Numbered from the stretch's first letter, positions 3,701 to 62,453 are shown. The stretch: DNA of 64,000 nt from Amphiscolops sp. MND2022 (GCA_964187785.1 OZ076409.1:28274001-28338000), one strand, 5' to 3'. Program-made: numbers and translations. Notes: generated from the sequence alone by a model not told the origin.

Positions 3701-3713
3701 TCTAACTGCGCCA

Positions 3714-6375: not shown

Positions 6376-6803
6376 GCCTTGTGATGCTGCGACGAAACAC
6401 AGAAAGGACAAAGTTGTCATTGAACGAACTAACTTAAACAGGAAAGTACGAGATACAGGTCGACAAGTACCCAACACCCTCAGATCCATGACCCATGTTC
6501 ATCGCGATGCATGTAAAAGTACAAAACCTCGGCCCTCTTCATTCCTGGACTCCAATGTCCAGAATGTTGCCGAACACACAGTGCTGCTTCGACGGCAGGG
6601 TTCGAAGCACCATGCAAACAATTAGGCGAAAATCTCATAATCGAAAACTAGCATCAAGTCAAAAACCCAGCCTTTCACACCAGAATGTTTCCGCAAAACG
6701 GAAAAACGTCTCGAAAACGAACTGTCTCCTGAACCACATCTGACATTGTGGCAATCTTTCAAGGGACAGAGAAGACAATCTCGGAAAATGATTCACCTGC
6801 TTT

Positions 6804-7517
6804 TGTAACGGCAACTGCCCATGTCAAAATTTTCGAAGCAAAAATTCGTTCAAGTCTGACGTGGCACTCAAACATGCTCCAGACGAAAGACCTGTCAAAA
6901 AAGCAGATCAGAAATCAGAAATCGCCCCCGCGAGAGACGACGAAAAGAGAAGACGTAGAAAACAGTCCCTAGAACACGGTGATGTGCCCATCTTTGGCGT
7001 TTGCACTACATAGGTAACAGAAACCGGTGTTCCAGATGCTCGCCTGAAGATCCTGCGGCGTCCTGTGCGGTGACGAGCGCTAGCGCTGGGAAGCCATGGT
7101 CAATTCGCTCCTGCTAAATAACTCAAACTTCTGATATTGTTATGCTTATTGTGCTTTTCTTGTTGTAGTAGATTGATATGCTCGAGAGCTGCCCATTTAC
7201 ATCTTTGGTTACCCCTTTTTGATGTCGATTTTATCAGATTCTCCAATACTATGGCTCAACATCCTCCTGTTTTCAGCCCCCTTTTTAAAGGCTAATTGAG
7301 CAGTGGTCTTGAGACGTGCAAGATGCCCGTTACTTTTAGCAGTTACAGACTAGGACCAGGCCAGAGAGTTTCCAACAAGACGGTTCCCCCACCTTGGGAC
7401 TGGCTCCTTCGGAGGGAAAATGAGCTAGGGCCGCGGAGATCTAAGTCCCGGATTACATTCGCTGTTCTAGTTCCTCCATTCTACGTTGCGGTTCAAGCGC
7501 CAGCGCTTATCGTTACA
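6804..7517 (+). repeat. 5' LTR (714 bp)
   Basis: TGTAACG...CGTTACA terminal inverted 7-mers. Identical to 24985-25698 except T7205/A25386 on by-eye comparison. Confidence 0.97.
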
Positions 7518-7532
7518 TAGAACCTCATTTTT

Positions 7533-7550
7533 TGGCGACCACAGAGGGAT
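7533..7550 (+). promoter_or_regulatory. Primer-binding site, probably tRNA-Arg(TCG)-type
   Basis: TGGCGACCACAGAGGGAT resembles the reverse complement of the 3' end of metazoan tRNA-Arg(TCG) (TGGCGACCACGAAGGGA). It lies 15 nt downstream of the LTR end. Confidence 0.7.
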
Positions 7551-8728
7551 CGTCTTGGGAAGCTTTCCCTAGCGGTTTTTAAAAGATCTGGCCCCCTGGT
7601 AATCAGCGCCAAGCCCGTTTTGACTCTGAAGAAGGAGAGAGAAGCAGAGTTTTGCCCTTTTTAGTCGTGTGACATTCTACTGGAACTGGGAGAGGCGTTG
7701 AACCAGAGAAAACCCGAAAAAATCACGTTTTCAGGTGTGAAAATGGTATTTTTAGGTGTTTTGGAAGGAAATCGATATTTTTGTGTGATGTGTTGTGTGC
7801 CCATCAGCGGGTATCTTTTTGCAGGTGCTGAAGACCGTAGCACGTGGCTACGGGTGTTTAACAGGTTTTGCAAGCTATTTTCAGCCATTTTATGCCATGC
7901 AAGAGGGTGACTGGTGGATGGCTGACCATGAACCAGCGAGGCGAAGGGGAAGTCAAATTGTGTGTTGCCTACTTCCTACTCCCATTTCTCGTGGAGACGT
8001 CCTAGAGGTATGGTTTTTGGTGGACAGCAAGTGCAATTGCAGACGATGCCAATGGTCCAAACCGCGTGTCTGTATCTGGTCTGGATGTGGAGAAAAAGCG
8101 TGGTGAAGGTGCACCCCCTGTGACCGGACGCGTCGCTCAAATGGCTCATGGTCGGTGAAATTTTTGAAAATGCACCTTTTTCGACGGGGAATCGTTGGTG
8201 CAGGTCAGTAATGTTTTATTGTAGATGTAACGACACCCTACGAAGTGCTTTTCTGTAAAAAAGATAGCACTTGCGTGAAAAAACCCTGATTTTGCGTTTT
8301 TTTCGTGTTTTTCGTGGTTTTGAGCACTTGTGCTCAGCGGAGCCAGGAAAACTTCGTGAAAAGTGTTGTAAAAAGCAACTGCAAGGCTCGAGAAAGCGAG
8401 CACGAGGCACAGAAGGCCGTAATTTTGCCTTTGGTTGTGATAAAAGTGCCGATCTAGCACCAGAAAATTGCAAAAAAGTGGAATTTTGACCAAAATGGCA
8501 CCCAGAAACACAGGCGTACACTGGTGTAGAAGTATGAAAAAGCAGTGTACGGTGTTTTGTCAAGCGTAGTAAACCCACAGGACACTAACTGTAACTTTTA
8601 CAGCGGATTCAGGCAGCCTGGGGCTGACACGGTGCAAAAAACCGGTAATTTTAGGTGTTTTTAAGCATAGAAAGTGCATTGTCTGAAAGTCTTAAGTGTG
8701 AAGCTTAGTGGACCAGAGCGAGTTTGAA

Positions 8729-9002
8729 CGCTCTTATTTTCCGTTCTAGCAATAAAAATAGCGCATTGTGGTGAAAACCGCGTGCAGAAATTCCTTTTCA
8801 ATGTTGAGAAAAGTTGAAAAACCTATAATTTTGGTTAGTTTCAGGAGTGTCCCAGCGCACAATTAAAACCCCCTGGGCACTCTGTCTTTTTGTTAGCTAG
8901 GAGCTTCCGCGCTCTCATTTTCTGTTTTTATAAAAAAAATAACGCATTGTGGTGAAAACCGCGTGCAAAAACTCCCATTCAGTGCTGAGAAAAGTGGAAA
9001 AA
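8729..9002 (+). repeat. Two ~93-bp imperfect direct repeats in the retroelement leader
   Basis: cgctct.atttt...aaaata.cgcattgtggtgaaaaccgcgtgca...tgagaaaagt.gaaaa at ~8729-8821 and ~8909-9002. Confidence 0.8.
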
Positions 9003-10223
9003 CGCACTGGATTTGATCAATTTTCCACAAAACCGGACTGTCTCTGAGCTAGGGTCGGGTCATCGATTCCTGAACCCTAGCCAAAAAGTGGTTGCATTTT
9101 CGTAACCACCACAAAAAGTAACGTTAGTGCCGAAATTTTGGTGGGCGTATCGTTCCCCAAAGTCGAGAAAAGCTCTCTGACGTTTTGACTCCAGAGAAGC
9201 TGAAAAAGCCGAAAAAATCCAAAACTGCAGGACTGTCAGTGCCTTATATCCAACGGGCACAACCAATTGAGGGTTTATCCCAGTGCTACGGATAGTGGGG
9301 CGACACGTTGGTCCCATTTTGCCCGCCGTATCACTTTCTGAGGTGATCCTCTTGGTCAATTTGTGAAAAAAGTCGTCAAAAACAGTGTTTTTTCGTGTAC
9401 AACGTACATAGTGGGTCGGAACTTCAAATAAGCGCTTGCGCTTCAATTCGACCATATCAGTGGCATTGTAGGTGCCCACTGGCATAAACTATTAAGTTTG
9501 GTGCCGATCTGTGCGATAATTGTCGAGAAAATAGGAAAAACGCGGCGCCCAAAAAGGTGTGCAAAAAGGCAGTTTTTTCTTAATTTTTCCAAGTAACCCG
9601 GGTACCTTAGCCGACGGGTGGGTCTATATTGCAGCCCACCATCGTAACCTGTGCTAGTTCCTACGTCGTTGCAGAGAATTTGAGCTTGCTAGCTTTTTTT
9701 CAGTAAACCGCAATCTTGAAAAAGACGTGAAAAACAGTGTATCCCGGTACATAGTGGTACCGCACGTCTGTACCTAGGTGAAACTGCGTAGAAGGGGTGC
9801 AGCTCAATTCTGTGTTTATTTTCGTAAACCTACACGTACCTAAGATCTGCTGGTCAATTTTGGGCTTGATACAGCGCCTCCAGCGCACACACGAGCCTCT
9901 TGAGTGTTGTAGTGCAAATTTTGGAAAATCCAAAAAATCTTTGAAATTCTTCCTGTGAGTGACCGGAGACGTTTTGCCCTGAACCAGGTTGATTTTCTGG
10001 CCCAGTGTGCTTGTGGAAAAGCGCTGTGCAAATTTGAACAGCCTACGAGCCTTAAAACGTATTTCGAGAAATTTGGGACGTTGCGAAACAGTCAAATTTC
10101 TTAAGTCCACACCGAGACGAGCCTAGAGCTAACAGCGACTCGACAAATCCCGCGTTCTTCGAGGCTTCTTTAAAGGTTACGTCCGAATCGTTGACACCTG
10201 CTCTGCCATTGGCATCGTGTGTA

Positions 10224-13200
10224 ATGGTCCTACCAGGCCTGGAAAAGCTTGACATGAGTTCGCAGTCATGGGTGACCATAGGATCCACAATGGACGGTTC
10301 GCGTTTTTCAGACGAAATGTCTGACGAAGTCACTATCGAGCAACAACGAAAGGAGGAACTGGCCGCCATGGTCCCTCCCTCTGAGGGTTCCGTTACATCT
10401 GGAAGCTCTCGTCGAACCGAACAATGGGTCGAAGAAACCTGTCGTGAAAGAGCCAATGAAGCAGAAGAAGAGTGGCCCAACTCAAACGTGACCAACGAAC
10501 TTGCAGCTGAGGAAGGGTGCTCTCGCGCACCCCTAGGGGAAAAAATGAGCTCTCGCCTACAGATCACGGTGGATGAGGATCTTACCTACTCGGAGAACAC
10601 GAGTGGTGCGAGGCCGCAAGGGTCTGGAGTCACTCGAAGTAACACTAGAGTTTGTGCTTATGGCAAACACAAGAAAGTGCGACCACCCATGATAAATGTA
10701 GGTGAACGTCAAGTTGAGGTGCCTCGTAAGAGGAGCGTGGCAGGTTCAGTGGCATCGTCCCAACGATCTTCGGTGTACAAAGCAGCAATATTGGAAGCCC
10801 AAGCCGAGACCCAACGTGCCTTAGCTGAACTGGCTAGCACTCGTGCTGGATGCAATGACCAACACCGTGCCATCGCAGAAAATATGAGAACATTGCAGAC
10901 AACGATGCGAGAAGGTTTGCAGGTCAGTGATCAGCTGCGAACCGCGCAGAACACGCAGAGCGCTCGCGTAGATGCACTAGGCTACAGAATGGGTGAGATG
11001 AATGACCTTTTGATGGCCCGTGAACTTCGTGTGGAAACCCAGATCAATGATTTGAGTAACCAAATGCACACTGTACTCAATGCTATCAACATCATGAGGC
11101 GCGAAAGGTCCCTCCCACGACAAGCTGGTGCCACTGAAGGTGTGCCGATCGCGGATTCAATTAAGGCCACGGAATCATCGCACCAGGGTCAGGCAACAAA
11201 ACCCGAGTTGGCGAGCGTATTGAAGCCCAGCACCTCCAAGTCGACAACGCCTGAAACCCGAACCAAGGATCCTGTGCCCATCATGGCTGCTGTGGAGCGT
11301 AAACCTGCACGGGTGCAGGTAAGAGGGCCCCACGACTCCTCGTCGATGAGCCAAATGACATCCTCCATAGTTCGAAGTGCCACCCGAGACCAAGGTGTGG
11401 ACCCGATGTCACCTATCTATCTAGATACTTCTACTGAAGTTGATTTATCCTGTACTAAGGCCACACTAGGGTCCCAGACTGATGGAGCTGCGTATGCGAC
11501 GGCCCCTACCATGGTTTCTGGAACGGACTCCCTGTATCTGACCGCCGACTGGACAGCTGAGGACGGGATGCCCTCGGGCGCTCCTTGCGCGAGTAGCACT
11601 CGCAGGAAAGAAGACGTGACGAACCTCTCAGTGCGAGCTACGCATGGCAGTGACGACGGTACTGATGATGTGGCACCCAAGGAAGGAGAGGCTGAAGTCA
11701 TCTCTCCTGAGCAATTGAGGTTCACTGCCGCCATTTCCAAAGCAATGTCCAAAGAACTGGCACCGTTACTGGCGGGACGTGACCTGGCTCAAACCAAACC
11801 CAGCGTGTATCGAGGCTCTAAGGACGGGTCTATTGATGGCTGGATCCTAGTAATGCAGCGATACTTAAAGAGAATCCAAACCAAAATCTCGGCCGAAGAT
11901 CGAGCCTGGAGCATTGTCGGTCACCTCGAAGGTGAGGCTCGCAACTACATCATCAACAAGGCAGAGTCTGAACGTGACACCCCCGAGAAGGTGTTCGAGT
12001 TGCTATCTAGTCGATTTGGCGCGGGAGGAAATCGCATGCAGGTGCGGCAGACCTTCCAAAGCCGCGTCCAACAAGAAAAAGAAGACTGGATGCAGTACTT
12101 AGACGCTTTAGAGGGTCTCAGGAGCCAAGGATTCCCGCAAGAAAGTATCACTACTAAACGCTATGAAATCTTGCAACGCTTCATGGAAGGTGTGCGAGAT
12201 CCAGTGTTGAGGCGTGAACTTGCTATAGTATACGCCTCGGAAACTTTTCTTACCGAACCCCCTACCGTGGAGTCCTTGCGATTTACCACGCGTCAGCTGC
12301 AACGCAATCGTCCCAGACCCACCCAACCTCAACAACCCTATGATCCCCGATTAGCCATGAGGTCTAGACCTCATCCTTTCGCACCACTGCCGCCGAACAA
12401 GATGGTTATGCCGCAGGGCGTCTTGCCACCTCCGGCGCCCCCCCAAAATGTCCCAGCTCCGGCTGTCCCAGCTCCCGTCCGAGCGCCAGTAGGTGCTTGT
12501 TTTCACTGTGGGCAAAACGGACATTTTGCTCGCGAGTGCCCCAATCGTGACCAAGCTCGAAAACCAATGACTGCCTCCGAACCAGAGGGCGTGAAGGTGA
12601 CCACGGAGGACACGATCGATGGTATCCTTGAAGGTCATCCAGGGATCTATCAATGCGCGAGCTGTGGCCTTTTCGATCAGGCGGAAGTGCAATGTGGTGA
12701 GCACTCCCATGCGCCAAAACCCAATGAAGAGTTGGCCTACAATCGATGGGCTGAGGTCGAATCAGCTGGCATCGCCGCGCACACCGTACCTTTGGAGGAT
12801 GACCGCGTGTTAATGCTACATCCAGCGGAACCGCCTGCGTTTCACACTCCGATGACATTCACTTGTGGTGCTAAGCAAGTTCAGACCTGCTTGGAACCCA
12901 CAACGTTCGATCCGCAAGGACGTACGCTAATTTCAATTCACCTGTTGCTGGCAGCTGAGCAAACGCGTAGGCCGACGCTAACTCTGGCGAAGCTATGGGT
13001 CGAGTTGTCTATCCTCTACAAACGAAACGAGTTGCCTCGACCGAAAGAATGGTACGCTCCGGGAGAGTCTGTGACTCTGACAACGTATTCCCCAGTGCCA
13101 GTCTGCGCTTCAATGGATGGAGTGGATATGAAATTCGAAGCCTGTGTGGTGGTGGATGTATTTTCCCCTGGCATTTGTCTGGGTCCCCAGGAGCTCAAAT

Positions 13201-16200
13201 GCTATAACATCAATCACCAGGAGCCCACCGGCGAAGCGCGTATTGATGAGCGTGCGTCGCTCGTAGTCTCTTTCGTGGTGCCTCATGCAGCACCTATTCC
13301 GCTGCGAGGGCTGGTGGACACTGGCTCGGGCGTCTCCATACTGACGTTTTCCGCCTTCAACAGAGTGGCAGCTCGAACTGGAACGGTACTTAAACCCTAC
13401 CAAGTTGACCTGTACGCAGCCAACGGGAAGACAATAAAGACCTACGGCCTCGCAGAACACATCCATTTCCAGCTGGGAGGATACGAACTTGAAACGAACT
13501 TTGTGGTGGTAGATGATGCAATGGGTGTGGAAGACTTCCTACTTGGCCGGAACTTTCTTCGCTCCTACCAGGTGTTAGTGGATCTAACATCTATGAAGAT
13601 TGTGGTGCGAGCACCAGTGAAGCCTGTGTGGCATCATGCTCACGCACAGGTAGGTGACACTTCAATAGCTACTCCAGTCGTTTTGGACAGTGACTTGGTC
13701 CTGCAACCTTTCGAACGAGCGGTGGCTAGAGCCAAGCTCGTCACCAACACACTAGAGCCGCTGATTTTTCAAAGCGTAGCGCTCAATGCCTCTTTGTCTG
13801 ACACTACGTTGCACAATGTCGTCTTTTTAGAGGACAGCGTGGCCACTGTCAGTGAGACAGGAACACTCTTTGTGAGCCTGATAAATCTCACCAGCAACCC
13901 TCAACGCATGCGGTGTGGTGTACAACTGGGCACCGTAGTACCCGTAACGGTAGTATACCAAGCAGTACCTCAATGTTTGGACTCTCCCACTACAACCCGC
14001 ACAAAAACTGACGCCGACGACAGTCGTGCAAATTTTGTTCATAAAATTTATAGTGAAGTGAATCTATCCACTGCTTCTGAGTTAACCTCTTCTTCCGAAT
14101 TTGAGTTTTTGTCCTCTACTGACCCTAGCGAGGCAGGACTATCGGAGCGCGAGATTCGCAAACGAACGGACCCAGAGCTAATGGCTCCGATTCCTGGGCC
14201 GGAATCTCAGCTCAAGGCGGTCAAGGATTTGTGGGGCGCTAGCGCCTGCGAGTCTCTCCGTAACCTCCTCGATGAATTTGATGAGCTGTTCATGAAACAC
14301 AAAGCAGACATCGGTCGGTGCACTATCTCTAAGCACACCGTGGAGGTGGAACCAGGGGCTGTACCGCATCGCGAAGGTGCTCGCCGGATGTCCCCTGAGA
14401 AGGCCGAACGTGCCAATCAGGAGGTACGGAACCTCTTAGCTCTGGGAATGATACAGCCCTCGCTGTCCCCCTGGGCGAGCGGCATTGTAATGGTGAAAAA
14501 GAAAAACGGGGAGTTGCGCTTTTGCTGCGACTTCCGCCCGTTAAATGAGGTAACCATTAAGGATGCTTATCCCTTGCCCCGCATTGATGAAAGCCTGGCA
14601 CGGCTAGGCAAAGCCAAGATCTATACCAGCATAGACCTTGCTTGGGCCTTTTGGCAAATTCCCGTGCGAAAAGCGGATCGCCACAAAACCGCTTTTGCTT
14701 GTGAACTAGGACTTTTTGAGTGGCGGCGAATGCCATTTGGTATGTGCAATGCATCTGCCACATTTCAGCGGTCAATAGCGCGTGCGCTAAGGAATATTGT
14801 CAATCGTGAGGGCAGCATGGTCATGGCCTACATTGATGATATCGTGATTGCCACGGAGACTGTGGAAGACCATATGGTACGCCTACGTGAAGTCTTTGAA
14901 TGTCTCCGTGAAGCCGGCTTCAAAATGCGCGTGGCCAAATGCGATTTCATGAAATCGGAGATCAAGTATTTGGGACGAGTGGTGTCCGCAGAAGGAGTGA
15001 AGCCCGACCCAAAAGCCGTCGTCAAGTTGCGCGATTGGGAAATTCCCCGTAACAAGACGGAGATGCAGAGTTTCCTTGGATTCGCCAACTATTATCGCGA
15101 ATTCATTCCTTGGCACGCTAAGCTGGTTGCACCCCTGCACGCCGTCACTGGACTAAATGCCACCTTCGCCTGGGGTCCTGAGCAACAAACCGCATTCAAT
15201 GAGATCAAAAAAGCCCTAATCGAGGCAACTGCGCTCGCGCAGCCTGATTCCGAAGGAGAGTTTGTGTTGGACACTGACGCTAGTGCTGTCGCCATTTCGG
15301 GTATTCTGCACCAGTGGCAAGGTCCTCCGGGTGAACGACGCCTGAGACCGATAGTTTACGGTAGCAAGAAGCTCACCACCACACAAGCCGAATACGGAGC
15401 CCGCAAACTTGAAATGTTCGCCGCCTACTATTTCATAGTGAAGAACCACAGCTATCTATGTCCCCGGAAATTCACCCTGCGGGTGGACAACCAAGCTTTG
15501 TCCTGGTTGAAAACCTACTCCACGGATCAAGCGCTAATCGGCCGATGGATTATGACCCTGGAGAAATATCACTTTCGCGTGGAACACCGCCCGAGGACCC
15601 AACATCGAAACGCCGATGGCTTGAGCAAACGAACCAACGAGTACCGATGCCGCGAAAAACAGCTTGCACAGCAGCCAGCTGCGGGCGAACGCTGGAACTT
15701 TCTTTCAGCTGACGAATTTGATAAACTACCTGTTGCCCCATGGTTCGACCTTCAGGGTCGAGTCATCCCGAACCATCCCGAGTTACCTGCGCACCTGCAG
15801 AACTTGGAGCCTAAGGCTCCCAACCAATTGATACGCGTGCTTCGCCGCACCAAACGAGCGAGCAGGAGGGACAGACAAGCAAAAGCATTCGCAGCCCCCT
15901 TGCCACCTCCGCCTTCCCTTGCTCTGCAACCGCACGAGGATGCATATCCAGACTACCCTGAGGACTGGATTGATGTGACTGATGAAGCACGCGAAGATTA
16001 TCTATTACCAACGCATGCCGTAAATGTACCCTCACGTACCGTCTATGCTATTGCTGGGGCGAATCCTGTTGCGTTGCAAGGTACTCCCTCGGGTGTGCGC
16101 GACTCAATCACGGCTCTTAAAGACATCAACACTGAACTTCACGAACATGCTCACACCGTGCATGGTATCAAAGATTTGATTCTAGCCCAAAACCGTGATG

Positions 16201-19200
16201 TTCATGTGCTAGCACTCAAAAAGTTGGTGCTGAACGAATCTATCGATCATGACGTGTTTCCCGAGAACGTGCGTGAATTCGCACGCAACTACTACCGCCA
16301 GAAGAAAACCCTCCTGTTTATCAACAAGAATGGTGTACTTTGCGTACAATACCCTCCCAACCAACGTCCCCTGCACGAACGTCCGTGCATGATCGTCATG
16401 CCACAACTGTACCAGCATGAGATTTTATTCCGCGCGCATGACGCCATGGGACATCAAGGTATCTCCAAAGTGGTGGCTAGGATTCAAGAACGTCACACAT
16501 GGCCTGGTATTCGGCGCAGCGTGGGCCGTTACGTTGGCCAATGCCTCACCTGTCAACAAGTTCGAGATAAGCCTGGTGACGTCCGATTCCACCTAAAGAA
16601 CATCCAAAGCGGATACTTCAACGAATTGGTCCAATATGATCATCTGAAGATCTGCCCCTCAGACAGTAATAACACTGGCATCTTGGTCATAATTGACCAT
16701 TTCTCCAAGTTCGCGGAAGCAGTGCCCTGTAGTCATCATGACTACGACGCTGTGACTACCTCTCGGTTGCTGTTACAAAAGTGGTTCGCCCGTCATGGCA
16801 CACCCACTAGGATGCAGTCTGACAATGCCCCTAATTTGACTGGCGAGGTGTCCAACGAATTCCTAAAAGCAGCCCACGTTACCAAAGTAACCTCTACGGC
16901 TAGCCATCCGAGAACCCAAGGCTTGGTCGAGCGCCAAAATCGGACGCTGCTAACCCTACTGCGAGTTTTTTGTTCCCGCCGTATGCGCGATTGGGACCAA
17001 TGTCTTGATGAAGTCATGGGTGCCTACAACTCTACGAGGCACGCCACCACTGGCTTCTCACCCTACATGCTGACCCGTGGCGTAGAGAAGGCCATCCCTC
17101 TCACGTTCTTATATCCCGAGTTTGCAGCCAAATCATTCGAGTCGCATGAGGCATATGTCGATCATGTATTGGCTCGCCAACAGGAAATACATGACCTGGT
17201 ACGGCGTAACACGCACCAAGCCCAATTGCGTCAAAAGTTGAAGTACGACCGTGCTATACAAGCGCGAGCTTACCAAGTAGGCGAGCTCGTCTGGGTTTTT
17301 TGCCGCTACGTACCGCAAAAGGGTTCCCCGAAATTGATGCGTGCTTGGCGAGGCCCGCACAAAGTTGTACAAGTCTTTCAGGACGGTCGTGTCTATGTAC
17401 TAGACACAGGTCAAAAGGTTCATTTTGAGCGTCTTAAACCGCACCACAGTGGCCCACTTGAACTTGCTACCGCACACTCGGACAGTGGTGAGGTGGTGGT
17501 CCTTATGGACCCCGAACCTGAACGTTCCGTCGATGTAGTTGATGACGACAAGTCTTTATCGTCGTATAAACCCGAACAACTACTTTCAGAGGCGTCCGAT
17601 GCATCTTTGCCCCCACGTCGACGTCACTGGATGGACACTCGACTACGCACGAAACTTCGCGCAGGTGGCTCCCGCCCGCATTATCAGCAATTTGACTATT
17701 CCACCTCGGGTACAGACGACGAACTATCCGATGCCATGTTGCCAATACCTCCTAATCCCGTTGACGAGGATATGGTGGAGCCTGCGGCTCCTCCGACTAC
17801 GTTGGATCAGTCGATATCCCCTGCCCGTGTACTACCCCAACTGTTCTCTGACCACGAGCGAGTGCGCTCACCGTCTCCACAGATATCCTCCGAAGAAGAG
17901 ACATCGCTACCAGGAACCTCAGCTTCCTTGTTGACGAATCCCTCGCTAACCAACTTTCTTAGTAACTATCCCATATGGCCGACCGCCCCTCCGATTCCCC
18001 TCAAATCTGCCAGCAGCGACAGCAACGTTCAACCCGATCCGCCTCATGCTCCCGAAACTTCGCCAGGAGCGGGGACCGCTCCTTATTTTAAAAGGGGGAG
18101 GGGGAGACCACCCAAGGCACAGAAGAAACGGCTGATCCGAGCGAAGGCAAGGACGAGGAAGAAAGAAACACCGAGAAATGCCGAAACTGAAACTGCGATC
18201 CAGGCCGAAACGGAAGCTCCCAGAACTGCAGAGACGCTAACAGAAGCATCTGCAACTGCTCTTAGGTATCAACTAAGGAGTAAACGACAGCCGCGCTACA
18301 AGTGTGGAACCTGCGGGCTGCGAGATTGTGTCTGCCTATTAGCTGTGAATGAGAACCGGAGGGTTCCCATTGGAGCCCGGGGAGTTCCTCCGGAAAAGAG
18401 AGAAAACTTGGTGTACCGCCTCACGGTGCGGGCCGAGAAAACCTACTCAGCTGTAGAGCGGTCCGGAGACCACCCTGTGGACACTATCTTGGAGAAGTTG
18501 TCACTGCCTGGGGTAGCGAAGGCCCCTTGTCCTAGGTTTAAGGAGTGGACTAGCGATGGAAAGGGCCTGGAGTTTACCCTGCCCACGGTGTTGCCCCCCG
18601 TGCCTAGTAATATTGCGTTTGGACCATTCAATTTTGAAAGAGAACCTGTGCAGATGGTCCGATGCATCACTGCCGACTTGTTATGCGACAAGTATGGAGT
18701 CCAGGTGGAACCAGGAGGGGTATACAGCCCGGCTCCTCACTGGTGGTTGCTGGTAACAGCTCCACGAGTGGAGGCGCTGGTGGAACCGTTGAATCTGTTA
18801 TCCTGTCTAGAGAGTCTGAGGACCCTCACCACAGTGGACTTAATACTTTGCTTCCATATCATAGACTGGTACCGAGGTAAGATGAAGTTCGCGTGGTGGC
18901 TGGAACTAATAATCACATGTTTCGCCACCTATCCCAGAATTCGACTATTAGATGAGTGGACTCACACCTTCGAGATCCCCTTGTTCCCCAAAGCCGCCCT
19001 GGGAACTTTAGATGCGTGGGTAAAGGCCGGCAGCGACAATCGAGCGATGCCCCGCTCAGTGTGGCAAGACCTGGCTGCAGTCCAAGGGCGTACGCATCGC
19101 GTGTGTCTGCCCCCAGATAATGACCCCGGACGAGAGATTGTTTACCCGGGAGCCCTGTATCCGAATTCAGCCGAACACGTCTCTTACGATGAATCCGATT

Positions 19201-19637
19201 TCTTGCAGGCCGAGGGCGACATAGTGTTAGCATGCCCTGCTGACCTAAAGACCAACTCTGCCGCCCTGCGATATGTGCTGCGGGAGTGCGGCATGGAAGA
19301 TGTATTTGCCTTACGACCTAAGGTGGGCGAGATTCTCACTATCCCGCCTGATGTGAACCCCAACCCTAACCAAAGTATTCACCTGTTGATAGTCCGTGCT
19401 AACCAGCGCGCACCGCTGCTGACAGATGACTACTTGCGTTGCATGACGTACTTGATACAGCGCCTGATAGATAAAGGATCCACACGGGTCCACCTACCCA
19501 TTCTGGATCCCGAGAGACCGGCTTTCTCGTTGGTCAATCTGTACCATACTCTAACGAACATGTTCGAGGGTACTGGTATTCACGTGGTTTTGCATAGCCG
19601 CGTATATGTATCAATATTAACTATAGGGCTGAAGTAG
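10224..19637 (+). CDS. Gag-Pol polyprotein (~3140 aa): long N-terminal extension, capsid, CCHC knuckle, aspartic protease, dUTPase-like fold, RT, RNase H, integrase, extended C-terminal tail with AT-hook and two macrodomain-like units
   Basis: Single open frame (track ORF 10191-19637; first ATG 10224). CFHCGQNGHFAREC (12498-12539), LVDTGS (D 13317), YPLPRID...LAWAFWQ...MPFG...YIDD (14829), TDAS (15276), HDAMGH...CLTC, IDHFSK/SDNA/VERQN integrase core, WRGPHKV GPY/F-like motif. Confidence 0.95.
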   Translation: MVLPGLEKLDMSSQSWVTIGSTMDGSRFSDEMSDEVTIEQQRKEELAAMVPPSEGSVTSGSSRRTEQWVEETCRERANEAEEEWPNSNVTNELAAEEGCSRAPLGEKMSSRLQITVDEDLTYSENTSGARPQGSGVTRSNTRVCAYGKHKKVRPPMINVGERQVEVPRKRSVAGSVASSQRSSVYKAAILEAQAETQRALAELASTRAGCNDQHRAIAENMRTLQTTMREGLQVSDQLRTAQNTQSARVDALGYRMGEMNDLLMARELRVETQINDLSNQMHTVLNAINIMRRERSLPRQAGATEGVPIADSIKATESSHQGQATKPELASVLKPSTSKSTTPETRTKDPVPIMAAVERKPARVQVRGPHDSSSMSQMTSSIVRSATRDQGVDPMSPIYLDTSTEVDLSCTKATLGSQTDGAAYATAPTMVSGTDSLYLTADWTAEDGMPSGAPCASSTRRKEDVTNLSVRATHGSDDGTDDVAPKEGEAEVISPEQLRFTAAISKAMSKELAPLLAGRDLAQTKPSVYRGSKDGSIDGWILVMQRYLKRIQTKISAEDRAWSIVGHLEGEARNYIINKAESERDTPEKVFELLSSRFGAGGNRMQVRQTFQSRVQQEKEDWMQYLDALEGLRSQGFPQESITTKRYEILQRFMEGVRDPVLRRELAIVYASETFLTEPPTVESLRFTTRQLQRNRPRPTQPQQPYDPRLAMRSRPHPFAPLPPNKMVMPQGVLPPPAPPQNVPAPAVPAPVRAPVGACFHCGQNGHFARECPNRDQARKPMTASEPEGVKVTTEDTIDGILEGHPGIYQCASCGLFDQAEVQCGEHSHAPKPNEELAYNRWAEVESAGIAAHTVPLEDDRVLMLHPAEPPAFHTPMTFTCGAKQVQTCLEPTTFDPQGRTLISIHLLLAAEQTRRPTLTLAKLWVELSILYKRNELPRPKEWYAPGESVTLTTYSPVPVCASMDGVDMKFEACVVVDVFSPGICLGPQELKCYNINHQEPTGEARIDERASLVVSFVVPHAAPIPLRGLVDTGSGVSILTFSAFNRVAARTGTVLKPYQVDLYAANGKTIKTYGLAEHIHFQLGGYELETNFVVVDDAMGVEDFLLGRNFLRSYQVLVDLTSMKIVVRAPVKPVWHHAHAQVGDTSIATPVVLDSDLVLQPFERAVARAKLVTNTLEPLIFQSVALNASLSDTTLHNVVFLEDSVATVSETGTLFVSLINLTSNPQRMRCGVQLGTVVPVTVVYQAVPQCLDSPTTTRTKTDADDSRANFVHKIYSEVNLSTASELTSSSEFEFLSSTDPSEAGLSEREIRKRTDPELMAPIPGPESQLKAVKDLWGASACESLRNLLDEFDELFMKHKADIGRCTISKHTVEVEPGAVPHREGARRMSPEKAERANQEVRNLLALGMIQPSLSPWASGIVMVKKKNGELRFCCDFRPLNEVTIKDAYPLPRIDESLARLGKAKIYTSIDLAWAFWQIPVRKADRHKTAFACELGLFEWRRMPFGMCNASATFQRSIARALRNIVNREGSMVMAYIDDIVIATETVEDHMVRLREVFECLREAGFKMRVAKCDFMKSEIKYLGRVVSAEGVKPDPKAVVKLRDWEIPRNKTEMQSFLGFANYYREFIPWHAKLVAPLHAVTGLNATFAWGPEQQTAFNEIKKALIEATALAQPDSEGEFVLDTDASAVAISGILHQWQGPPGERRLRPIVYGSKKLTTTQAEYGARKLEMFAAYYFIVKNHSYLCPRKFTLRVDNQALSWLKTYSTDQALIGRWIMTLEKYHFRVEHRPRTQHRNADGLSKRTNEYRCREKQLAQQPAAGERWNFLSADEFDKLPVAPWFDLQGRVIPNHPELPAHLQNLEPKAPNQLIRVLRRTKRASRRDRQAKAFAAPLPPPPSLALQPHEDAYPDYPEDWIDVTDEAREDYLLPTHAVNVPSRTVYAIAGANPVALQGTPSGVRDSITALKDINTELHEHAHTVHGIKDLILAQNRDVHVLALKKLVLNESIDHDVFPENVREFARNYYRQKKTLLFINKNGVLCVQYPPNQRPLHERPCMIVMPQLYQHEILFRAHDAMGHQGISKVVARIQERHTWPGIRRSVGRYVGQCLTCQQVRDKPGDVRFHLKNIQSGYFNELVQYDHLKICPSDSNNTGILVIIDHFSKFAEAVPCSHHDYDAVTTSRLLLQKWFARHGTPTRMQSDNAPNLTGEVSNEFLKAAHVTKVTSTASHPRTQGLVERQNRTLLTLLRVFCSRRMRDWDQCLDEVMGAYNSTRHATTGFSPYMLTRGVEKAIPLTFLYPEFAAKSFESHEAYVDHVLARQQEIHDLVRRNTHQAQLRQKLKYDRAIQARAYQVGELVWVFCRYVPQKGSPKLMRAWRGPHKVVQVFQDGRVYVLDTGQKVHFERLKPHHSGPLELATAHSDSGEVVVLMDPEPERSVDVVDDDKSLSSYKPEQLLSEASDASLPPRRRHWMDTRLRTKLRAGGSRPHYQQFDYSTSGTDDELSDAMLPIPPNPVDEDMVEPAAPPTTLDQSISPARVLPQLFSDHERVRSPSPQISSEEETSLPGTSASLLTNPSLTNFLSNYPIWPTAPPIPLKSASSDSNVQPDPPHAPETSPGAGTAPYFKRGRGRPPKAQKKRLIRAKARTRKKETPRNAETETAIQAETEAPRTAETLTEASATALRYQLRSKRQPRYKCGTCGLRDCVCLLAVNENRRVPIGARGVPPEKRENLVYRLTVRAEKTYSAVERSGDHPVDTILEKLSLPGVAKAPCPRFKEWTSDGKGLEFTLPTVLPPVPSNIAFGPFNFEREPVQMVRCITADLLCDKYGVQVEPGGVYSPAPHWWLLVTAPRVEALVEPLNLLSCLESLRTLTTVDLILCFHIIDWYRGKMKFAWWLELIITCFATYPRIRLLDEWTHTFEIPLFPKAALGTLDAWVKAGSDNRAMPRSVWQDLAAVQGRTHRVCLPPDNDPGREIVYPGALYPNSAEHVSYDESDFLQAEGDIVLACPADLKTNSAALRYVLRECGMEDVFALRPKVGEILTIPPDVNPNPNQSIHLLIVRANQRAPLLTDDYLRCMTYLIQRLIDKGSTRVHLPILDPERPAFSLVNLYHTLTNMFEGTGIHVVLHSRVYVSILTIGLK

Positions 19638-19932
19638 CCTTTTCATTTTAGTTGTCCCCATTTTTCCTTTGCCCTCAGTTCTTGCAACAGTTTCTGTAAC
19701 AACCTTGGAAGAGCCTTGAAATGCTCTCGAGATGTTAATTTGTCATGTTGTTCACTCAAGGGTTTTGTTCTAGTTCGTTAGTTAGTTAGAGTTAGATTTT
19801 AAGTTTGTAGTGGCCCCCTTACGGAGCCGATGTTGCCTGGCTGCAATTGAAGGACGAACCGACTCACGGCTCGTTCCAGAGAGAACTTGTCCCCATAAGT
19901 CTAACAGTGGTCCTTTTTAGACCTATGCATTA

Positions 19933-22900
19933 ATGGCCCATTGCCCAAACAATTCAGCGCCTGCAACAGGGTCTAATAGTGCAAGGCCCCAGGAATCTGC
20001 GCGAGCGCAGAGGGTCAATCAGGCCCAATATGTCGAAGCAAAGCTGCGGGACGGTCTTTCGCCAGTAGCCGTAGCTGGGGTGGCCGCCCTACTGACTCAG
20101 CTTGAATCGATGCAAATGCTGCCGAATGCATCTTTGTCAATCACCACGGAGGTGGCAAGCTATCGTCGCACCTTGACGTGCACCAACAATGCCTGGGATG
20201 GGCACGACCTGACTCACCAGTTCTTGGACGAAAGATCAATCGCAGTGCATGGCCCCAGCCAGGGCACCAGATTCGAACAAGAAACATCACTGCGTATGAT
20301 GCCCGTTAACGTCCCATCGCTGCCTTCCATTGCGGCACCAAATCCAGTGCAGACGACGCCGCATTCTAGCTCGATTGCTTATGGGGCACCATATGGAACC
20401 CGGGCAACGACGACGCAGAACATTACCAATCAACCAGCCTCAAGTCGGGAGCCCTCGGGGTCCCAACCGCCAGCAGTGCCTAATCTAAATCTGATCGGAC
20501 GGAGTGCCAGCGAGCAAGCGGTGATTGTGGCCCTGCAGGCTGTCGCCAACTACCCCAACTCCTCTGACTTCGTTCGTGCAGTTGAGCAAAGGATTCCCGG
20601 ATTGGCACATTACTTGCAAGCCGCAGCTCAGCCCTCGGGCTGCGTCACCCCACCCACCACCCTAGCCGAAGCTGTGTCTATGGAAGCAGAAACTACGGCT
20701 GGACCAAGCACCAGCGCCATGACCTATCCCCGTGAGGAAACTGGCCGGAAGCGACTTACTGAGGAAAACATCGTCGCTACACGCCATGATTCCGTGACCG
20801 ACAGTCCGACCAGTCGTCCCCCTCCGGACAAGCGAGCAGATGTACCCCACCAGTCGCAGATGAAAAGTGTGGTGGTCGTGAGGCCTCCATATCGCGTCGG
20901 CCACCTAGGCGTAGGCGCGCCTCAGATGTCCCTGGAAGAGGCCATTAACCGCTACGGCAGTGTGGATGCGAATCCTGGAACGAGTCCTGTGCCCTCGGGC
21001 ACAGGCTGTGCCAACATGTCCCTGGAGGTGCCCGAGACAATAGATGAGACCAGTCCTCCCGCCTTTCTTCCCCCGTCCGATGATGTATCCGGCACCGTGG
21101 TGACTGGCGATAGCAAACGCATCTGGATGGCGGCAGAGTGTTTGTACCCGAACACATGTGCGGTTAGAAGTAGAGCACCGCCGTCTGACGCCGAGCAGAG
21201 AGAAGTGAGCAGAATCACCATTGCGGCTCAGATAACTCGGTCGCTACGTGCCCGTGATGCGGACTTGAGTGAGCAAGCCTGGGAACAGCGTGCTCGAGAG
21301 CAACTGCCCGCGACACCCAACAACTATATGGCTCGCCTGCAGCATGACCTCACCGAGCAATTTCCCGCTAGGTACATGTTGCACGAAGGAGAAACCTGGG
21401 AAGCAAACGCCCGCTACGCTCGCAATATCAAGTCAATGAAGCCCCTCTTGAAAGCAGCTCTGCAGCGTGCGCGCTATTGTGTGGCAGTAGATTCGACACT
21501 CAAGAGTGATCTCCCCATCGACAACCTTCTGCCCGATGTGCTGGTATTAACAATGCCACTCTCCCGCTTCGCTGAGGTCGCGGAGATGGTCGCGGTCATG
21601 TACGACCCTAACCTGAGAGGGTCCCTAAGAGAGCCGCCCCCGCGACGTGTAGTCTTCACCAATCTGATCGACCACATGGCTTGTGAAGGACTGCTACGCA
21701 ACCTGGATGCCCTCATGGCAGATACCCGTAGACCTGGGAGTGTGGCGTCCTTAGTAAACGTGGTTGCAGACGCAATGGAGCGTGCAGCAGGGATCCTTCG
21801 GGGTCGTCTGGGAGCGCTCGCGCTCTTCGCATCCCCGCCGGGATTCATGTATTGGCAACGAAGCTTGCAGCAATTTGTGTACATCCTGTCTGAGGTATGC
21901 AAAGCGCGCCGAATCGAGTTTGCTATTTGCGCGCCAAATCTGCGGGTTGATCGAGGAGACCTACGCCCCGATGCATTGTCATACCCCGCCTTCTTTGCTG
22001 CCGTGTCGAGAGTGCTGATCGCTGTGGAACGATCAGGAAATGCACAACTGACTATCGACGACGCCATACTGTTCGATCATGGAATGTGTATGGGGCGAAT
22101 GGCCTTCGACTTGGACGGGAATCGCGTCATGCGGGCATCCAACATGAGTGAACGAGAGGCCGTCCGACGATACAACTGGTTGGTGCGGAAGGACAAAGAA
22201 ATTCCCGTACGAGCAGAGCTGGCAGAGCTAGTGAAGGAAATTGAAACCTGGCCTGCCACACGCACGGTCGAAAGGACCATTCCCCAAATTCGGTTTGCCG
22301 CGGGAATAGAACCCGTCAAGTTGCCCGTGGGCATGAGGTACGTCGTGGCTATAGAGGCGACCAACTTGAAGGCTGAAGTAGATGCCGCCGGAATAACGTA
22401 TGCCGAGTGGTATCAGTCCAGATTCGTGGACAGGACCCTGGCCGAGGTAGCTCAAGAGCTTAACTGTCCCTTGGAAGCCTTTTGTACCAGTCTCGGACTA
22501 GGCTGGAACATCGACGTAATAGCCTCTGAGTACTTGCTCACCAATGTGCAGACCGACAAATTGTTGGAAACCATCGGCGAAGCTACTGTAGGAGAGATGT
22601 TAGCGCTCGCGCTAGCCATGGGCCCGACGAAGTTTGTGGCAGGTCCCCTTGCTATGCTAGTCGAGTTGGTAGTGTCCAGTGATCTAGTCACCTTTTACAG
22701 CTACCTGATCCTCGCGCAGGGACAACTACGCAGCCTAACTCGATGGGGCCACCTCCTAAATTCCAAGGACCAGCAAGATTATGTCACCCAGCTGGAACGC
22801 ATGCGTGCGTCCCTCCAACATTGGTTGTACTCCACCCTAGTGTTCGCCTCTGGCTTGTTCGTAGGCGTGGATCAATCGCAACCCCTCCACCATTCCGAGC

Positions 22901-24213
22901 GTCAACTCCCTGCGGAAACGGCGGGATTCCCCATGCCTCAGCAAATCGCCGATTTGACTCTGGCCGAAGTGGAAGACTTCGTGGCCGTTATGGCTTCCGT
23001 CCTGGCTCCAATCTTCGGTGCGGTCGGTGTGTGCCGGTATCCCACCAAACCACTGGCGAGAGCAGTACAGGTGCATATGGTCTCCTTCTGCACCTATCTC
23101 CAAGGACGCCCCCCACTGACCTATCAGCGAATCGTGCAGGCTGTATTGAGTGGCGAGATGCCGCACGGGTACACCACCTTGAAGTCGGAGAAACAACTAG
23201 AAGAGAATTTGATGGGTCTGTTGCGTGCCCGCACACGAAAAGCGTGCCCTTTGCCACGAGAATACGGCCCAGTCAACTGGTACTCCGCACCCCTCAGCCT
23301 GAATGGAGTCCCCTTTAGATTCCCTTGGTCGCAGGAGTTCATTCGCAAGGTGATCCGTGCCAGCACTAGTGCTGGTCCACCAGTAGATCCCCTGTACGCC
23401 TTCAAATGCATCACCTTCCCAAATCACTATTGGAAGGAGCCACTGGGATGGCCTAGAGCAAAACCCGTTGGTCGCGCCCCTGAAGCCTTCAATCGACAAA
23501 TCCAGTATATGGAATTGGCTCAAATCCCAAACTGGATTGAAGGAGCAGCTCAGACTCGCCAGAGGAACCTGCAGAGCCGCGTGACTCCGTTCCCAAGAAA
23601 AGCTGCCTGGCGACCGCAGGCCAAGATGACAATGTCAGGGGATATGTCCATCGTCCAACACGATGAGATTAATTCTGTGCTAGGCTCCGAAGCCCGCGCA
23701 GAGTGGGAAGGACATTGTTTGGAGCTGGAAATTGCCAGCTTCCCCAAATGGAAGCGAGCTTGCGAGCTCTGGAGTCAGCCTGGCTGGGTCTCCAAACGGA
23801 TATCCTTGGCCGTGGAGAGTAGAGCTGAACTCGAGAGACAACAGGCGTTCGCGCCTACCATGCTGGCACCCACAATGGCCATGTCACTAAGTCAGCCCAT
23901 CGACCGGCCCGTGACTCTGGATTTGCCCACTCATATTCTGCAGGCAGAGCCTGTGAGTCCACCATCGACACAGGCCAGTCCTCAGTCATCGCAACCCCAG
24001 ACCGGAGAACACGACGCTGAACTGACCCCCAGCACTATCCTGGTGCAGCCAATCGCCGATTTAACGCTCCCAGAGGACCTGTCAGACTCGGAAACAGTAG
24101 TTACTGTGGTTCCTGCTCAACGTAGAGCGTCAATTGCGTCGGAAGATGCCAGCAATCCAGGAACTCCCGATGATGCCATAAAGAATCGAGCTCGACGCAG
24201 CTCAGCCCAATAA
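19933..24213 (+). CDS. Accessory ORF2 (1426 aa) of the giant LTR element; unknown function, central SGNH/GDSL-hydrolase-like domain
   Basis: Uninterrupted 4.28-kb ORF between pol and the 3' LTR with the same elevated GC as pol. P/S/T-rich termini; YCVAVDS...VVFTNLIDH...ASPPG...DLRPD pattern at ~21475-22030. Confidence 0.85.
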   Translation: MAHCPNNSAPATGSNSARPQESARAQRVNQAQYVEAKLRDGLSPVAVAGVAALLTQLESMQMLPNASLSITTEVASYRRTLTCTNNAWDGHDLTHQFLDERSIAVHGPSQGTRFEQETSLRMMPVNVPSLPSIAAPNPVQTTPHSSSIAYGAPYGTRATTTQNITNQPASSREPSGSQPPAVPNLNLIGRSASEQAVIVALQAVANYPNSSDFVRAVEQRIPGLAHYLQAAAQPSGCVTPPTTLAEAVSMEAETTAGPSTSAMTYPREETGRKRLTEENIVATRHDSVTDSPTSRPPPDKRADVPHQSQMKSVVVVRPPYRVGHLGVGAPQMSLEEAINRYGSVDANPGTSPVPSGTGCANMSLEVPETIDETSPPAFLPPSDDVSGTVVTGDSKRIWMAAECLYPNTCAVRSRAPPSDAEQREVSRITIAAQITRSLRARDADLSEQAWEQRAREQLPATPNNYMARLQHDLTEQFPARYMLHEGETWEANARYARNIKSMKPLLKAALQRARYCVAVDSTLKSDLPIDNLLPDVLVLTMPLSRFAEVAEMVAVMYDPNLRGSLREPPPRRVVFTNLIDHMACEGLLRNLDALMADTRRPGSVASLVNVVADAMERAAGILRGRLGALALFASPPGFMYWQRSLQQFVYILSEVCKARRIEFAICAPNLRVDRGDLRPDALSYPAFFAAVSRVLIAVERSGNAQLTIDDAILFDHGMCMGRMAFDLDGNRVMRASNMSEREAVRRYNWLVRKDKEIPVRAELAELVKEIETWPATRTVERTIPQIRFAAGIEPVKLPVGMRYVVAIEATNLKAEVDAAGITYAEWYQSRFVDRTLAEVAQELNCPLEAFCTSLGLGWNIDVIASEYLLTNVQTDKLLETIGEATVGEMLALALAMGPTKFVAGPLAMLVELVVSSDLVTFYSYLILAQGQLRSLTRWGHLLNSKDQQDYVTQLERMRASLQHWLYSTLVFASGLFVGVDQSQPLHHSERQLPAETAGFPMPQQIADLTLAEVEDFVAVMASVLAPIFGAVGVCRYPTKPLARAVQVHMVSFCTYLQGRPPLTYQRIVQAVLSGEMPHGYTTLKSEKQLEENLMGLLRARTRKACPLPREYGPVNWYSAPLSLNGVPFRFPWSQEFIRKVIRASTSAGPPVDPLYAFKCITFPNHYWKEPLGWPRAKPVGRAPEAFNRQIQYMELAQIPNWIEGAAQTRQRNLQSRVTPFPRKAAWRPQAKMTMSGDMSIVQHDEINSVLGSEARAEWEGHCLELEIASFPKWKRACELWSQPGWVSKRISLAVESRAELERQQAFAPTMLAPTMAMSLSQPIDRPVTLDLPTHILQAEPVSPPSTQASPQSSQPQTGEHDAELTPSTILVQPIADLTLPEDLSDSETVVTVVPAQRRASIASEDASNPGTPDDAIKNRARRSSAQ

Positions 24214-24967
24214 ACCCTGCCGCCAATGGGAGCGTTCGCGCTCCCTATAGACTCTAAACTCTACCGAAACTGTGCCTTCAAACTTATCGCTTTAGCCGGT
24301 GCTACCCTTACATGGTGCAAATTTTTGTTCATAGTTATTACTTAGTTATTGTACTGTTAGTAATGCGCTGGGTGTACGGTCAATAGAGTGCACCTGCCCC
24401 AGCTGCTTCGCCTACAAAGTAAAAAAGAATCTATTACCGAAGAAAAACTGTTATTTCTGTTGCGCACCGTTCGCGGTGTTTTTGAGTTGCCATGGTCTAG
24501 AAAAAGTCTTAGCCTTTTAGTTACGATTTTTGCCGTTTTTCCTTGTGTTTTGGTGCTCAAGCATTTTCTATCGACTGTCTAAGGAGTAGCCGAAGCGGCG
24601 CCCTCCCAAAAGAAGTTTTATGTTATCCGAAATTGATCGAAGACTGTAAATGTCAAGTTGCATAAAAAAGAAAATTTTAGCTGACCTTGGTCGCAAAAGA
24701 AATTTTAGCGAAAACTGCTTGCCCAAACGAGTTTTAACCGACTGAAAACCTTAGCTCTCGAGCTGGTGCTAAAACCTCGTTTGCACTTTTTGTAAAAATA
24801 CTAGGCAGTAAAGTTTTCTTTGAAAAAAACCGCGAAATTTGTCAAAAATAGTTGCTGAAAAACAAGGACTCGTCCTTGTCCCCTGTGGTGTGGATGATGA
24901 TCCCCAGCAGTCTCTGCGATGCCGTTTCCAGACGAGGCCAGATGCCGCTTGCCAGGGACGACAAGCC

Positions 24968-24984
24968 AGAAGCCCGGGGAGTGA
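24968..24984 (+). promoter_or_regulatory. Polypurine tract
   Basis: AGAAGCCCGGGGAGTGA immediately 5' of the 3' LTR start. Confidence 0.7.
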
Positions 24985-25698
24985 TGTAACGGCAACTGCC
25001 CATGTCAAAATTTTCGAAGCAAAAATTCGTTCAAGTCTGACGTGGCACTCAAACATGCTCCAGACGAAAGACCTGTCAAAAAAGCAGATCAGAAATCAGA
25101 AATCGCCCCCGCGAGAGACGACGAAAAGAGAAGACGTAGAAAACAGTCCCTAGAACACGGTGATGTGCCCATCTTTGGCGTTTGCACTACATAGGTAACA
25201 GAAACCGGTGTTCCAGATGCTCGCCTGAAGATCCTGCGGCGTCCTGTGCGGTGACGAGCGCTAGCGCTGGGAAGCCATGGTCAATTCGCTCCTGCTAAAT
25301 AACTCAAACTTCTGATATTGTTATGCTTATTGTGCTTTTCTTGTTGTAGTAGATTGATATGCTCGAGAGCTGCCCATTTACATCTATGGTTACCCCTTTT
25401 TGATGTCGATTTTATCAGATTCTCCAATACTATGGCTCAACATCCTCCTGTTTTCAGCCCCCTTTTTAAAGGCTAATTGAGCAGTGGTCTTGAGACGTGC
25501 AAGATGCCCGTTACTTTTAGCAGTTACAGACTAGGACCAGGCCAGAGAGTTTCCAACAAGACGGTTCCCCCACCTTGGGACTGGCTCCTTCGGAGGGAAA
25601 ATGAGCTAGGGCCGCGGAGATCTAAGTCCCGGATTACATTCGCTGTTCTAGTTCCTCCATTCTACGTTGCGGTTCAAGCGCCAGCGCTTATCGTTACA
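24985..25698 (+). repeat. 3' LTR (714 bp)
   Basis: Direct copy of 6804-7517. Confidence 0.97.

Positions 25699-34935: not shown

Positions 34936-62453
<27,518 letters not shown>

Follow-up and report, generated by a model that had tools for sequence, protein, structure and literature searches.

Architecture of the element and its copies

The window, i.e., the whole stretch of 64,000 nucleotides that was analysed, contains an LTR retrotransposon of the Ty3/gypsy type, 18.9 kb in length, at positions 6804-25698 (Table 1). Its LTRs have the form TG...CA and its pol domains follow the order PR-RT-RNase H-IN, both in line with Ty3/gypsy elements. An earlier note on this DNA had assigned the ORF2 domain described below to an LTR element, and this was borne out by paired LTRs of 99.86% identity around gag-pol and ORF2. 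The primer-binding-site-like TGGCG is found at a similar offset from the LTR end in three related loci. The leader between the 5' LTR and ORF1 (7518-10055) is 2.5 kb long, lacks any ORF of 150 aa and contains a 103-nt internal repeat (8720, 8901).

Table 1. Features of the element and of its ORF2 domain, in window coordinates.
Feature	Position	Strand	Remarks
Target-site duplication TTT, left copy	6801..6803	.	3 bp
5' LTR	6804..7517	+	714 bp, TGTAAC...GTTACA
Primer-binding-site-like sequence	7533..7550	+	begins TGGCG, 15 nt inside LTR end
ORF1 gag-pol	10056..19637	+	single frame, 3,193 aa stop to stop
Degenerate macro-like domain, ORF1 C terminus	19209..19601	+	predicted by profile comparison
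ORF1-ORF2 spacer	19638..19932	+	295 nt; pyrimidine tract ending CAG; candidate splice acceptor
ORF2	19933..24213	+	1,426 aa, env/ORF3 position, without Pfam family
Predicted SGNH-fold pseudo-esterase domain of ORF2	21466..22035	+	about aa 512-701; AF2 model and structure alignments
YCVAVDS (block I)	21475-21495	+	
Block I Asp-Ser-Thr	21490..21498	+	Ser521 (21493-21495) at nucleophile position
VLVLTMP (block II)	21538-21558	+	
Leu543, inferred block II oxyanion Gly position	21559..21561	+	hhalign register
RRVVFTNLIDH (block III)	21643-21675	+	
Block III N-x-x-D-H	21661..21675	+	Ile579 at inferred oxyanion-Asn position, strand-to-helix boundary
ALFASPPG	21820-21843	+	
LSEVCKARRIEF	21886-21921	+	
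GDLRPD (block V)	21955-21972	+	
Block V	21955..21969	+	Gly675 at triad-Asp position; Arg678 (21964-21966) at catalytic-His position
FFAAVSRVL	21991-22017	+	
3' LTR	24985..25698	+	99.86% identity with 5' LTR, one base different
Target-site duplication TTT, right copy	25699-25701	.	3 bp

Pfam matches in ORF1 comprise a PNMA-like gag, a CCHC knuckle, a protease, an RT, an RNase H and an integrase; a dUTPase family was absent among the 11 matches obtained with E up to 10. In the spacer between ORF1 and ORF2, a pyrimidine tract followed by AG is present in 4 of 4 loci (the window, L037, L118 and L121), as would be expected if ORF2 were made from a spliced message.

LTR elements, Ty3/gypsy included, usually duplicate 4-6 bp of their target. 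Here, a 3-bp target-site duplication was found in 9 of 12 distinct paired copies of the element, with the remaining three showing a mismatch at one of the three bases, and a match of 4-7 bp, and with it the 4-6 bp of Ty3/gypsy elements, was found in none of the 12. Duplications of 3 bp were also present in two of two more copies and in three of three copies of related families (target-site copies L078-L104; LTR pairs L036/L038, L117/L119 and L120/L122). The stagger of the integrase would accordingly be an unusual one; a literature search retrieved no paper on 3-bp duplications of gypsy elements.

The identical order of LTR, gag-pol, ORF2 and LTR was found in three of three further loci, at ORF2 identities of 29-49%. 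Searching the 1.07-Gb host genome (G000) with the domain yielded 3,089 candidates at first look. The 150 that were scored all had 97-100% identity, and in 149 of them the match is free of stops. For relatives at 81%, 49% and 34% identity, separate large sets of near-identical copies were obtained (150, 150 and 95 scored, respectively), all sets being lower bounds and not copy numbers. The element is young and abundant. A trypsin-like ORF (317 aa, catalytic-serine motif GDTGGP) on the minus strand of L036 was considered as part of the second family and rejected, as it lies outside its LTR, upstream.

The C-terminal tail of ORF1 is predicted to form a macro-like domain, presumably of the TARG1 type. 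It is 40-46% conserved in three related loci and resembles the macro domains of other LTR elements of the host genome, as evident from hhalign (80%, P 1.4e-5, 0 of 50 shuffles) and from an HMM search among 74 frames of that genome (E about 7e-5); Pfam and PDB sequence searches with the tail were blank. As the AHC-x-S and GCG motifs present in those macro domains are missing, the tail looks, from its sequence, like a second dead enzyme fold. Together, the 3-bp duplications and the macro-like tail suggest an undescribed element lineage. In other LTR elements of the genome (L126-L142), macro domains (PF01661) were seen in three different places, either following the integrase, separating RNase H from the integrase, or preceding the RT.

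The window further holds a second gypsy-type element on the minus strand (240-4057), which is frameshifted and has its gag, protease, RT and RNase H pieces in separate frames, and exons resembling a host kinase gene, with C1 and PH-like sequence (47993-49409), presumably a kinase of the MRCK/citron type.

ORF2 and the predicted fold of its SGNH-like domain

A Pfam scan of ORF2 returned no family match and no env match. According to hydropathy, ORF2 has one borderline hydrophobic stretch (aa 1016-1034) and an N terminus that is not signal-like; by the same measure, the first 40 aa are hydrophilic in P0002, P0012, P0026 and P0259, and the best 19-residue window across five ORF2 sequences ranges from 1.62 to 2.28, with at least 1.9 in three of them. 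Because the N terminus is hydrophilic and there is one borderline hydrophobic stretch, ORF2 does not look like a classic env by these sequence properties. A small N-terminal domain without family match (aa 20-110, ~19990-20260) is kept in distant relatives, with 37-42% identity in L118 and L121, and is also visible in P0173 and P0238; a Pro/Ser/Thr-rich linker lies between it and the ORF2 core. The core spans about aa 430-1290 and includes a conserved LTxDDAxxxDxG helix directly after the SGNH-like domain.

The earlier note had quoted seven motifs as parts of a degenerate SGNH/GDSL-hydrolase-like domain, and all of them were located where it had placed them, in the one open frame of ORF2 (19933-24213). 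The motifs by themselves are weak. For the Pfam SGNH family, 0 matches were obtained with ORF2, the domain, 7 aligned relatives and 10 longer relatives. Nothing under E 0.089 was obtained from PDB sequences, whether the query was the domain, its profile from 7 sequences or an ORF2 C-terminal profile, and an ESM Atlas search with the domain gave no usable match.

The host genome contains several multicopy intronless ORFs with SGNH motifs (L048-L077; 85 PF13472 matches), which are probably ORF1s of non-LTR elements; six of them that were aligned retain S, G, N, D and H. An HMM of the domain, run against 30 frames of this genome that contain SGNH, performed no better than reversed controls. Using hhalign, a domain-only profile was matched to the six intact SGNH ORFs with a probability of 65% (P 6e-5, score 35.0), in an alignment that is collinear from block I to the fourth strand. 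In the controls, the maximum among 100 block shuffles was 24.8 (0 of 100 reached 35.0), reversed profiles scored 15.2 and 14.6, and an unrelated alpha/beta macro profile scored 14.4. The hhalign probability varies between 6% and 65% with alignment depth and trimming, shallower or untrimmed versions giving 6% and 25%.

An AlphaFold2 model of ORF2 aa 485-736, based on 94 sequences picked by 85% clustering from 253 proteins, reached a pLDDT of 93.0 and a pTM of 0.89. Beta strands are predicted at blocks I, II and III and before SPPG, and the last long helix begins three residues after Arg678. A first model from 24 close sequences had been poor (pLDDT 63.7, residues 1-34 and 168-223 under 50, block I unplaced); its TIM-barrel likeness (Z up to 7.1) was discarded when the 94-sequence model superseded it.

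A structure search among 48,161 solved chains revealed 42 at Z 8 or above. The best match was the GDSL lipase 3p94 (Z 11.1, rmsd 3.9 Å, 177 aligned), and further matches include PAF-AH 1bwp (Z 10.8, rmsd 3.8, 175 aligned), EstA 3hp4 (Z 10.3, rmsd 3.2, 156 aligned) and E. coli TesA 1ivn (Z 10.0, rmsd 3.2, 158 aligned). The alignments pair model residues 28-217 with SGNH chains over their whole length, and the identity of the domain to solved SGNH chains is 5-17%. A second structure search gave a concordant result, with TesA of E. coli and Pseudomonas as further matches (Z 10.0-10.4). Neither of the two Z-ranked searches has the ZfL2-1 esterase 4C1B among its listed matches. Among the 50 matches listed, 12 are titled GDSL or SGNH, and 29 others are proteins that we take to have the SGNH fold. 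The other 9 appear in the SGNH table of PMC10792757, of which an excerpt was used.

Foldseek gave no match against the PDB at E 0.001 or better. Its weak rows were mostly GDSL/SGNH proteins, together with some RecA/CobU-like and designed proteins; in its viral library, one unnamed row passed the threshold and many of the named rows were SGNH. Membership of the domain within the SGNH hydrolase-like superfamily, as a three-layer alpha/beta fold whose parallel strands carry blocks I, II, III and V, is supported by the model. The SGNH-like fold proposed in the earlier note is thus upheld at the level of prediction (pLDDT 93, best Z 11.1), and in the comparison with Oskar OSK that it had put forward as a check, OSK was matched at Z 7.8 (rmsd 4.7, 163 aligned; rank 47 of 50 listed).

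Active-site residues and conservation

Catalytic positions were assigned by extrapolating the register from the two end points of each alignment, assumed to be ungapped, for 15 listed chains with published catalytic numbers. The catalytic Ser position falls on Ser521 in 10 of the 15 reference chains, and the catalytic His position falls on Arg678 in 10 and within one residue of it in 13; the misses concern mostly chains with terminal extensions. The registers of blocks II and III, which derive from secondary structure and hhalign, are less certain than those of blocks I and V. Residues were counted in 60 relatives under 70% identity, taking the rows that cover each column, and many of these relatives are fragments of decayed copies.

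Among relatives under 70% identity, 23 of 26 have Ser at position 521, as do 9 of 11 under 50%; Phe or Thr was found in 2 of the 11 distant relatives, which are possibly decayed copies. Gly is present at position 543 in 1 of 37 relatives under 70% identity (1 of 15 under 50%), and Asn at position 579, which is the oxyanion-Asn position if Asp580 is the block III Asp, in 1 of 44 (1 of 19 under 50%). Asp occurs at position 675 in 6 of 40 relatives under 70% identity and in 1 of 15 under 50%. At position 678, Arg was found in 32 of 39 relatives under 70% identity and in 14 of 15 under 50%, with His in 1 of 39. P0115 and P0180, which have His in this column, were considered as active forms and rejected; they lack the DxxH spacing and are likely decayed copies. 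Block III has conserved Asn577, Asp580 and His581, with Asn577 two residues before position 579, at the Gly position, and with His581 kept in 40 of 44 relatives under 70% identity (18 of 19 under 50%). The highly conserved set consists of Ser521, Asn577, Asp580, His581, Asn669, Arg671 and Arg678.

The earlier suggestion that the Ser is kept and the catalytic His replaced by Arg agrees with the end-point register of the model, in 10 of 15 chains each, and with the conservation of Arg678. The degeneration exceeds what had been suggested, in that the block II Gly, the block III Asn and the triad Asp also appear lost. As modelled, only S of S, G, N and H would remain, with a conserved Arg now in place of the base, and the domain, by this assignment, is not a member of the active SGNH/GDSL esterases. 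It is near neutral, with a pI of 5.7-9.1 over 11 relatives and K+R about equal to D+E in most; conserved basic residues are K507, R514, R671, R678 and position 693.

Word-based searches retrieved 26 and then 103 related proteins with identities of 45-100%, and an SGNH annotation was absent from all of them. A full HMMER search yielded 226 cluster representatives (E up to 0.001); among the 150 of these that were listed, aligned relatives extend down to 22-44% identity. Ten of ten relatives checked originate from ENA. The best match in the host genome is just ~29-31% identical for relative P0242 and 99% for P0113; as P0242 is without a close match there, the ORF2 family probably extends beyond this genome.

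Comparing the domain with that of the 81%-identical family revealed a dN of 0.11, a dS of 1.46 and a dN/dS of 0.075 (~0.08), calculated from 188 codons of one pair with dS near saturation. The domain is under purifying selection and kept over several families. With Arg678 fixed in 14 of 15 distant relatives and a dN/dS of ~0.08, a selected pseudo-esterase is indicated, and not a decaying one. The parts of ORF2 flanking the domain are equally constrained (80-83% identity, low pN), so that it may be the 900-aa core as a whole that carries the function.

Known SGNH-bearing systems and the function proposed for the domain

An SGNH module in an LTR element had been regarded as unusual in the earlier note. 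This held only in part, since an intact GDSL/SGNH esterase is described for ORF3 of the Vesta LTR retrotransposons of bdelloid rotifers, and inactive GDSL/SGNH derivatives for Athena-L retroelements, in the excerpted text of PMC5408684 (echoed in PMC6431247); what is new here is the Ser-kept, His-to-Arg form of SGNH inside a giant conserved ORF2. As in Vesta, a gypsy-like LTR element carries the domain in an additional ORF downstream of pol, and a membrane role, as proposed below for ORF2, was suggested for Vesta ORF3 (PMC5408684, excerpts). In contrast, the catalytic S, G, N and H are intact in Vesta, whereas the ORF2 domain keeps Ser alone; the Vesta GDSL ORF has about 1.3 kb, whereas the present domain lies within a 4.3-kb ORF; and the Vesta pol has a dUTPase between PR and RT, whereas none was found in ORF1 here (same excerpts of PMC5408684). 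The ORF2 domain is not a Vesta ORF3, being set apart by its residues and by the dUTPase. With the Penelope-like Athena-L it shares a retroelement SGNH domain without catalytic residues, in a different retroelement class and likened by description (PMC5408684, in part).

ZfL2-1 ORF1p (CR1/L2-type; PDB 4C1B) likewise is a multidomain accessory protein with a retroelement-borne SGNH fold; it differs in being an active Ser-His-Asp enzyme encoded upstream of pol in a non-LTR element, with a membrane face rich in Arg/Lys, as given in excerpts of PMC3905857. Binding of the ZfL2-1 esterase was seen with anionic phospholipids and liposomes but not with oligo-A RNA, and liposome binding persists in its active-site mutants (PMC3905857, excerpts). 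Oskar OSK (PDB 5A4A) resembles the ORF2 domain as a non-enzymatic SGNH fold. According to the available portion of PMC10792757, the block II Gly is retained in OSK, and its Ser and His positions are occupied by Asp and Phe, respectively; the ORF2 domain is unlike it in having Ser kept, Gly lost and Arg for His. OSK is part of a host gene with a LOTUS domain, whereas the ORF2 domain is part of a transposon ORF. In the literature searched, which excluded most subscription journals, Repbase and supplements, no report was found of an LTR element whose SGNH domain is catalytically dead.

In SGNH chemistry, His and Asp activate the Ser, and Gly and Asn form the oxyanion hole (PMC3905857 and PMC3715468, both in excerpt); in the ZfL2-1 esterase, hydrolysis was abolished by the mutation H282S (PMC3905857, in excerpt). 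Lacking the base (His), the acid of the triad (Asp) and the two residues of the oxyanion hole, the domain would leave Ser521 unactivated, and ordinary ester hydrolysis would be lost. As SGNH chemistry needs the residues that are missing here, we consider it likely that the domain lacks ordinary esterase activity.

Our tentative preference is a non-catalytic SGNH-fold module that binds an anionic ligand. By analogy, the former active-site pocket, lined by Ser521, His581, Arg671 and Arg678, would hold a phosphate- or carboxylate-bearing group; the ligand would be anionic, most likely a membrane phospholipid, and the domain may help to place the particle of the element on membranes. This is favoured because an invariant Arg next to a retained Ser would be suited to a phosphate or carboxylate group, and because the ZfL2-1 esterase does not depend on its active site for binding anionic liposomes and leaves oligo-A RNA unbound. 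The near-neutral charge of the domain counts against the lipid reading, the membrane face of ZfL2-1 being Arg/Lys-rich.

This near-neutral net charge would suit a non-catalytic scaffold or protein-contact domain within the large ORF2 core (~aa 430-1290), with no small ligand at all. Flanks that equal the domain in conservation (80-83% identity, low pN), the conserved LTxDDAxxxDxG helix that directly adjoins it, and Asp520 and Asp580 as structural positions in SGNH proteins (excerpts of PMC10792757 and PMC3715468) are consistent with such a role, yet the near-fixed polar Ser521 and Arg678 below 50% identity would be left unexplained, and we regard it as rather unlikely.

The conserved Ser521 and His581 leave room, as far as sequence conservation indicates, for rewired catalysis, in which a Ser521 nucleophile would be activated by His581 or by the substrate in an acyl-transfer or phosphoesterase-like reaction, and Arg678 would bind an anionic substrate or stabilise the oxyanion. 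High conservation of the entire set from Ser521 to Arg678 listed above would fit such an enzyme, as would the fact that the dead SGNH domain of Oskar lost its Ser (PMC10792757, in excerpt) and the ORF2 domain did not. However, the register places His581 on the block III side, away from the usual SGNH base position, and Ser gives way to Phe or Thr in two of the 11 distant relatives, possibly in decayed copies; rewired catalysis is deemed improbable.

That the domain binds the RNA of the element like Oskar OSK, thereby aiding genome packaging or localisation, appears quite improbable. OSK is reported to be a non-enzymatic SGNH fold that binds RNA (excerpts of PMC10792757 and PMC8662646), it matches the model (Z 7.8, rmsd 4.7, 163 aligned), and several basic residues of the domain are conserved (K507, R514, R671, R678 and position 693). 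Against this, OSK ranks 47th of the 50 matches listed, well under the active esterases, the domain lacks a consistently basic character (pI 5.7-9.1), a CCHC knuckle is already present in ORF1, and oligo-A RNA was not bound by the ZfL2-1 esterase (PMC3905857, in excerpt). A generic alpha/beta resemblance of a domain of other origin, for which 5-17% identity to solved SGNH chains, the missing Pfam match and the RecA/CobU-like and designed proteins among the weak Foldseek rows could be cited, is very improbable, as we recognise no other natural fold in the listed Z-ranked matches, the catalytic positions land on Ser521 and Arg678, and the hhalign score is above all shuffles and the unrelated alpha/beta control.

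For the element as a whole, we see a possible, if doubtful, scenario of an undescribed, still-spreading gypsy-type lineage of large elements with 3-bp duplications and two repurposed dead enzymes, one macro-like and one a Ser/Arg SGNH domain. In this lineage, ORF2 would be a non-env factor for membrane targeting or cell-to-cell transfer that acts via a lipid pocket, or else the Ser/His581/Arg site would constitute a new SGNH chemistry.

Through the domain, a 1,430-aa ORF in the env position that otherwise lacks annotation becomes accessible in structural terms for the first time. The domain also adds a pseudo-enzyme pattern, with Ser kept and His changed to Arg, that is distinct from that of Oskar. 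Retroelements of unrelated classes repeatedly capture SGNH esterases, with activity shown for one LINE protein. With catalysis apparently lost and the domain strongly selected in several abundant families, these elements would offer a natural test of the SGNH fold being kept for binding and not for hydrolysis.
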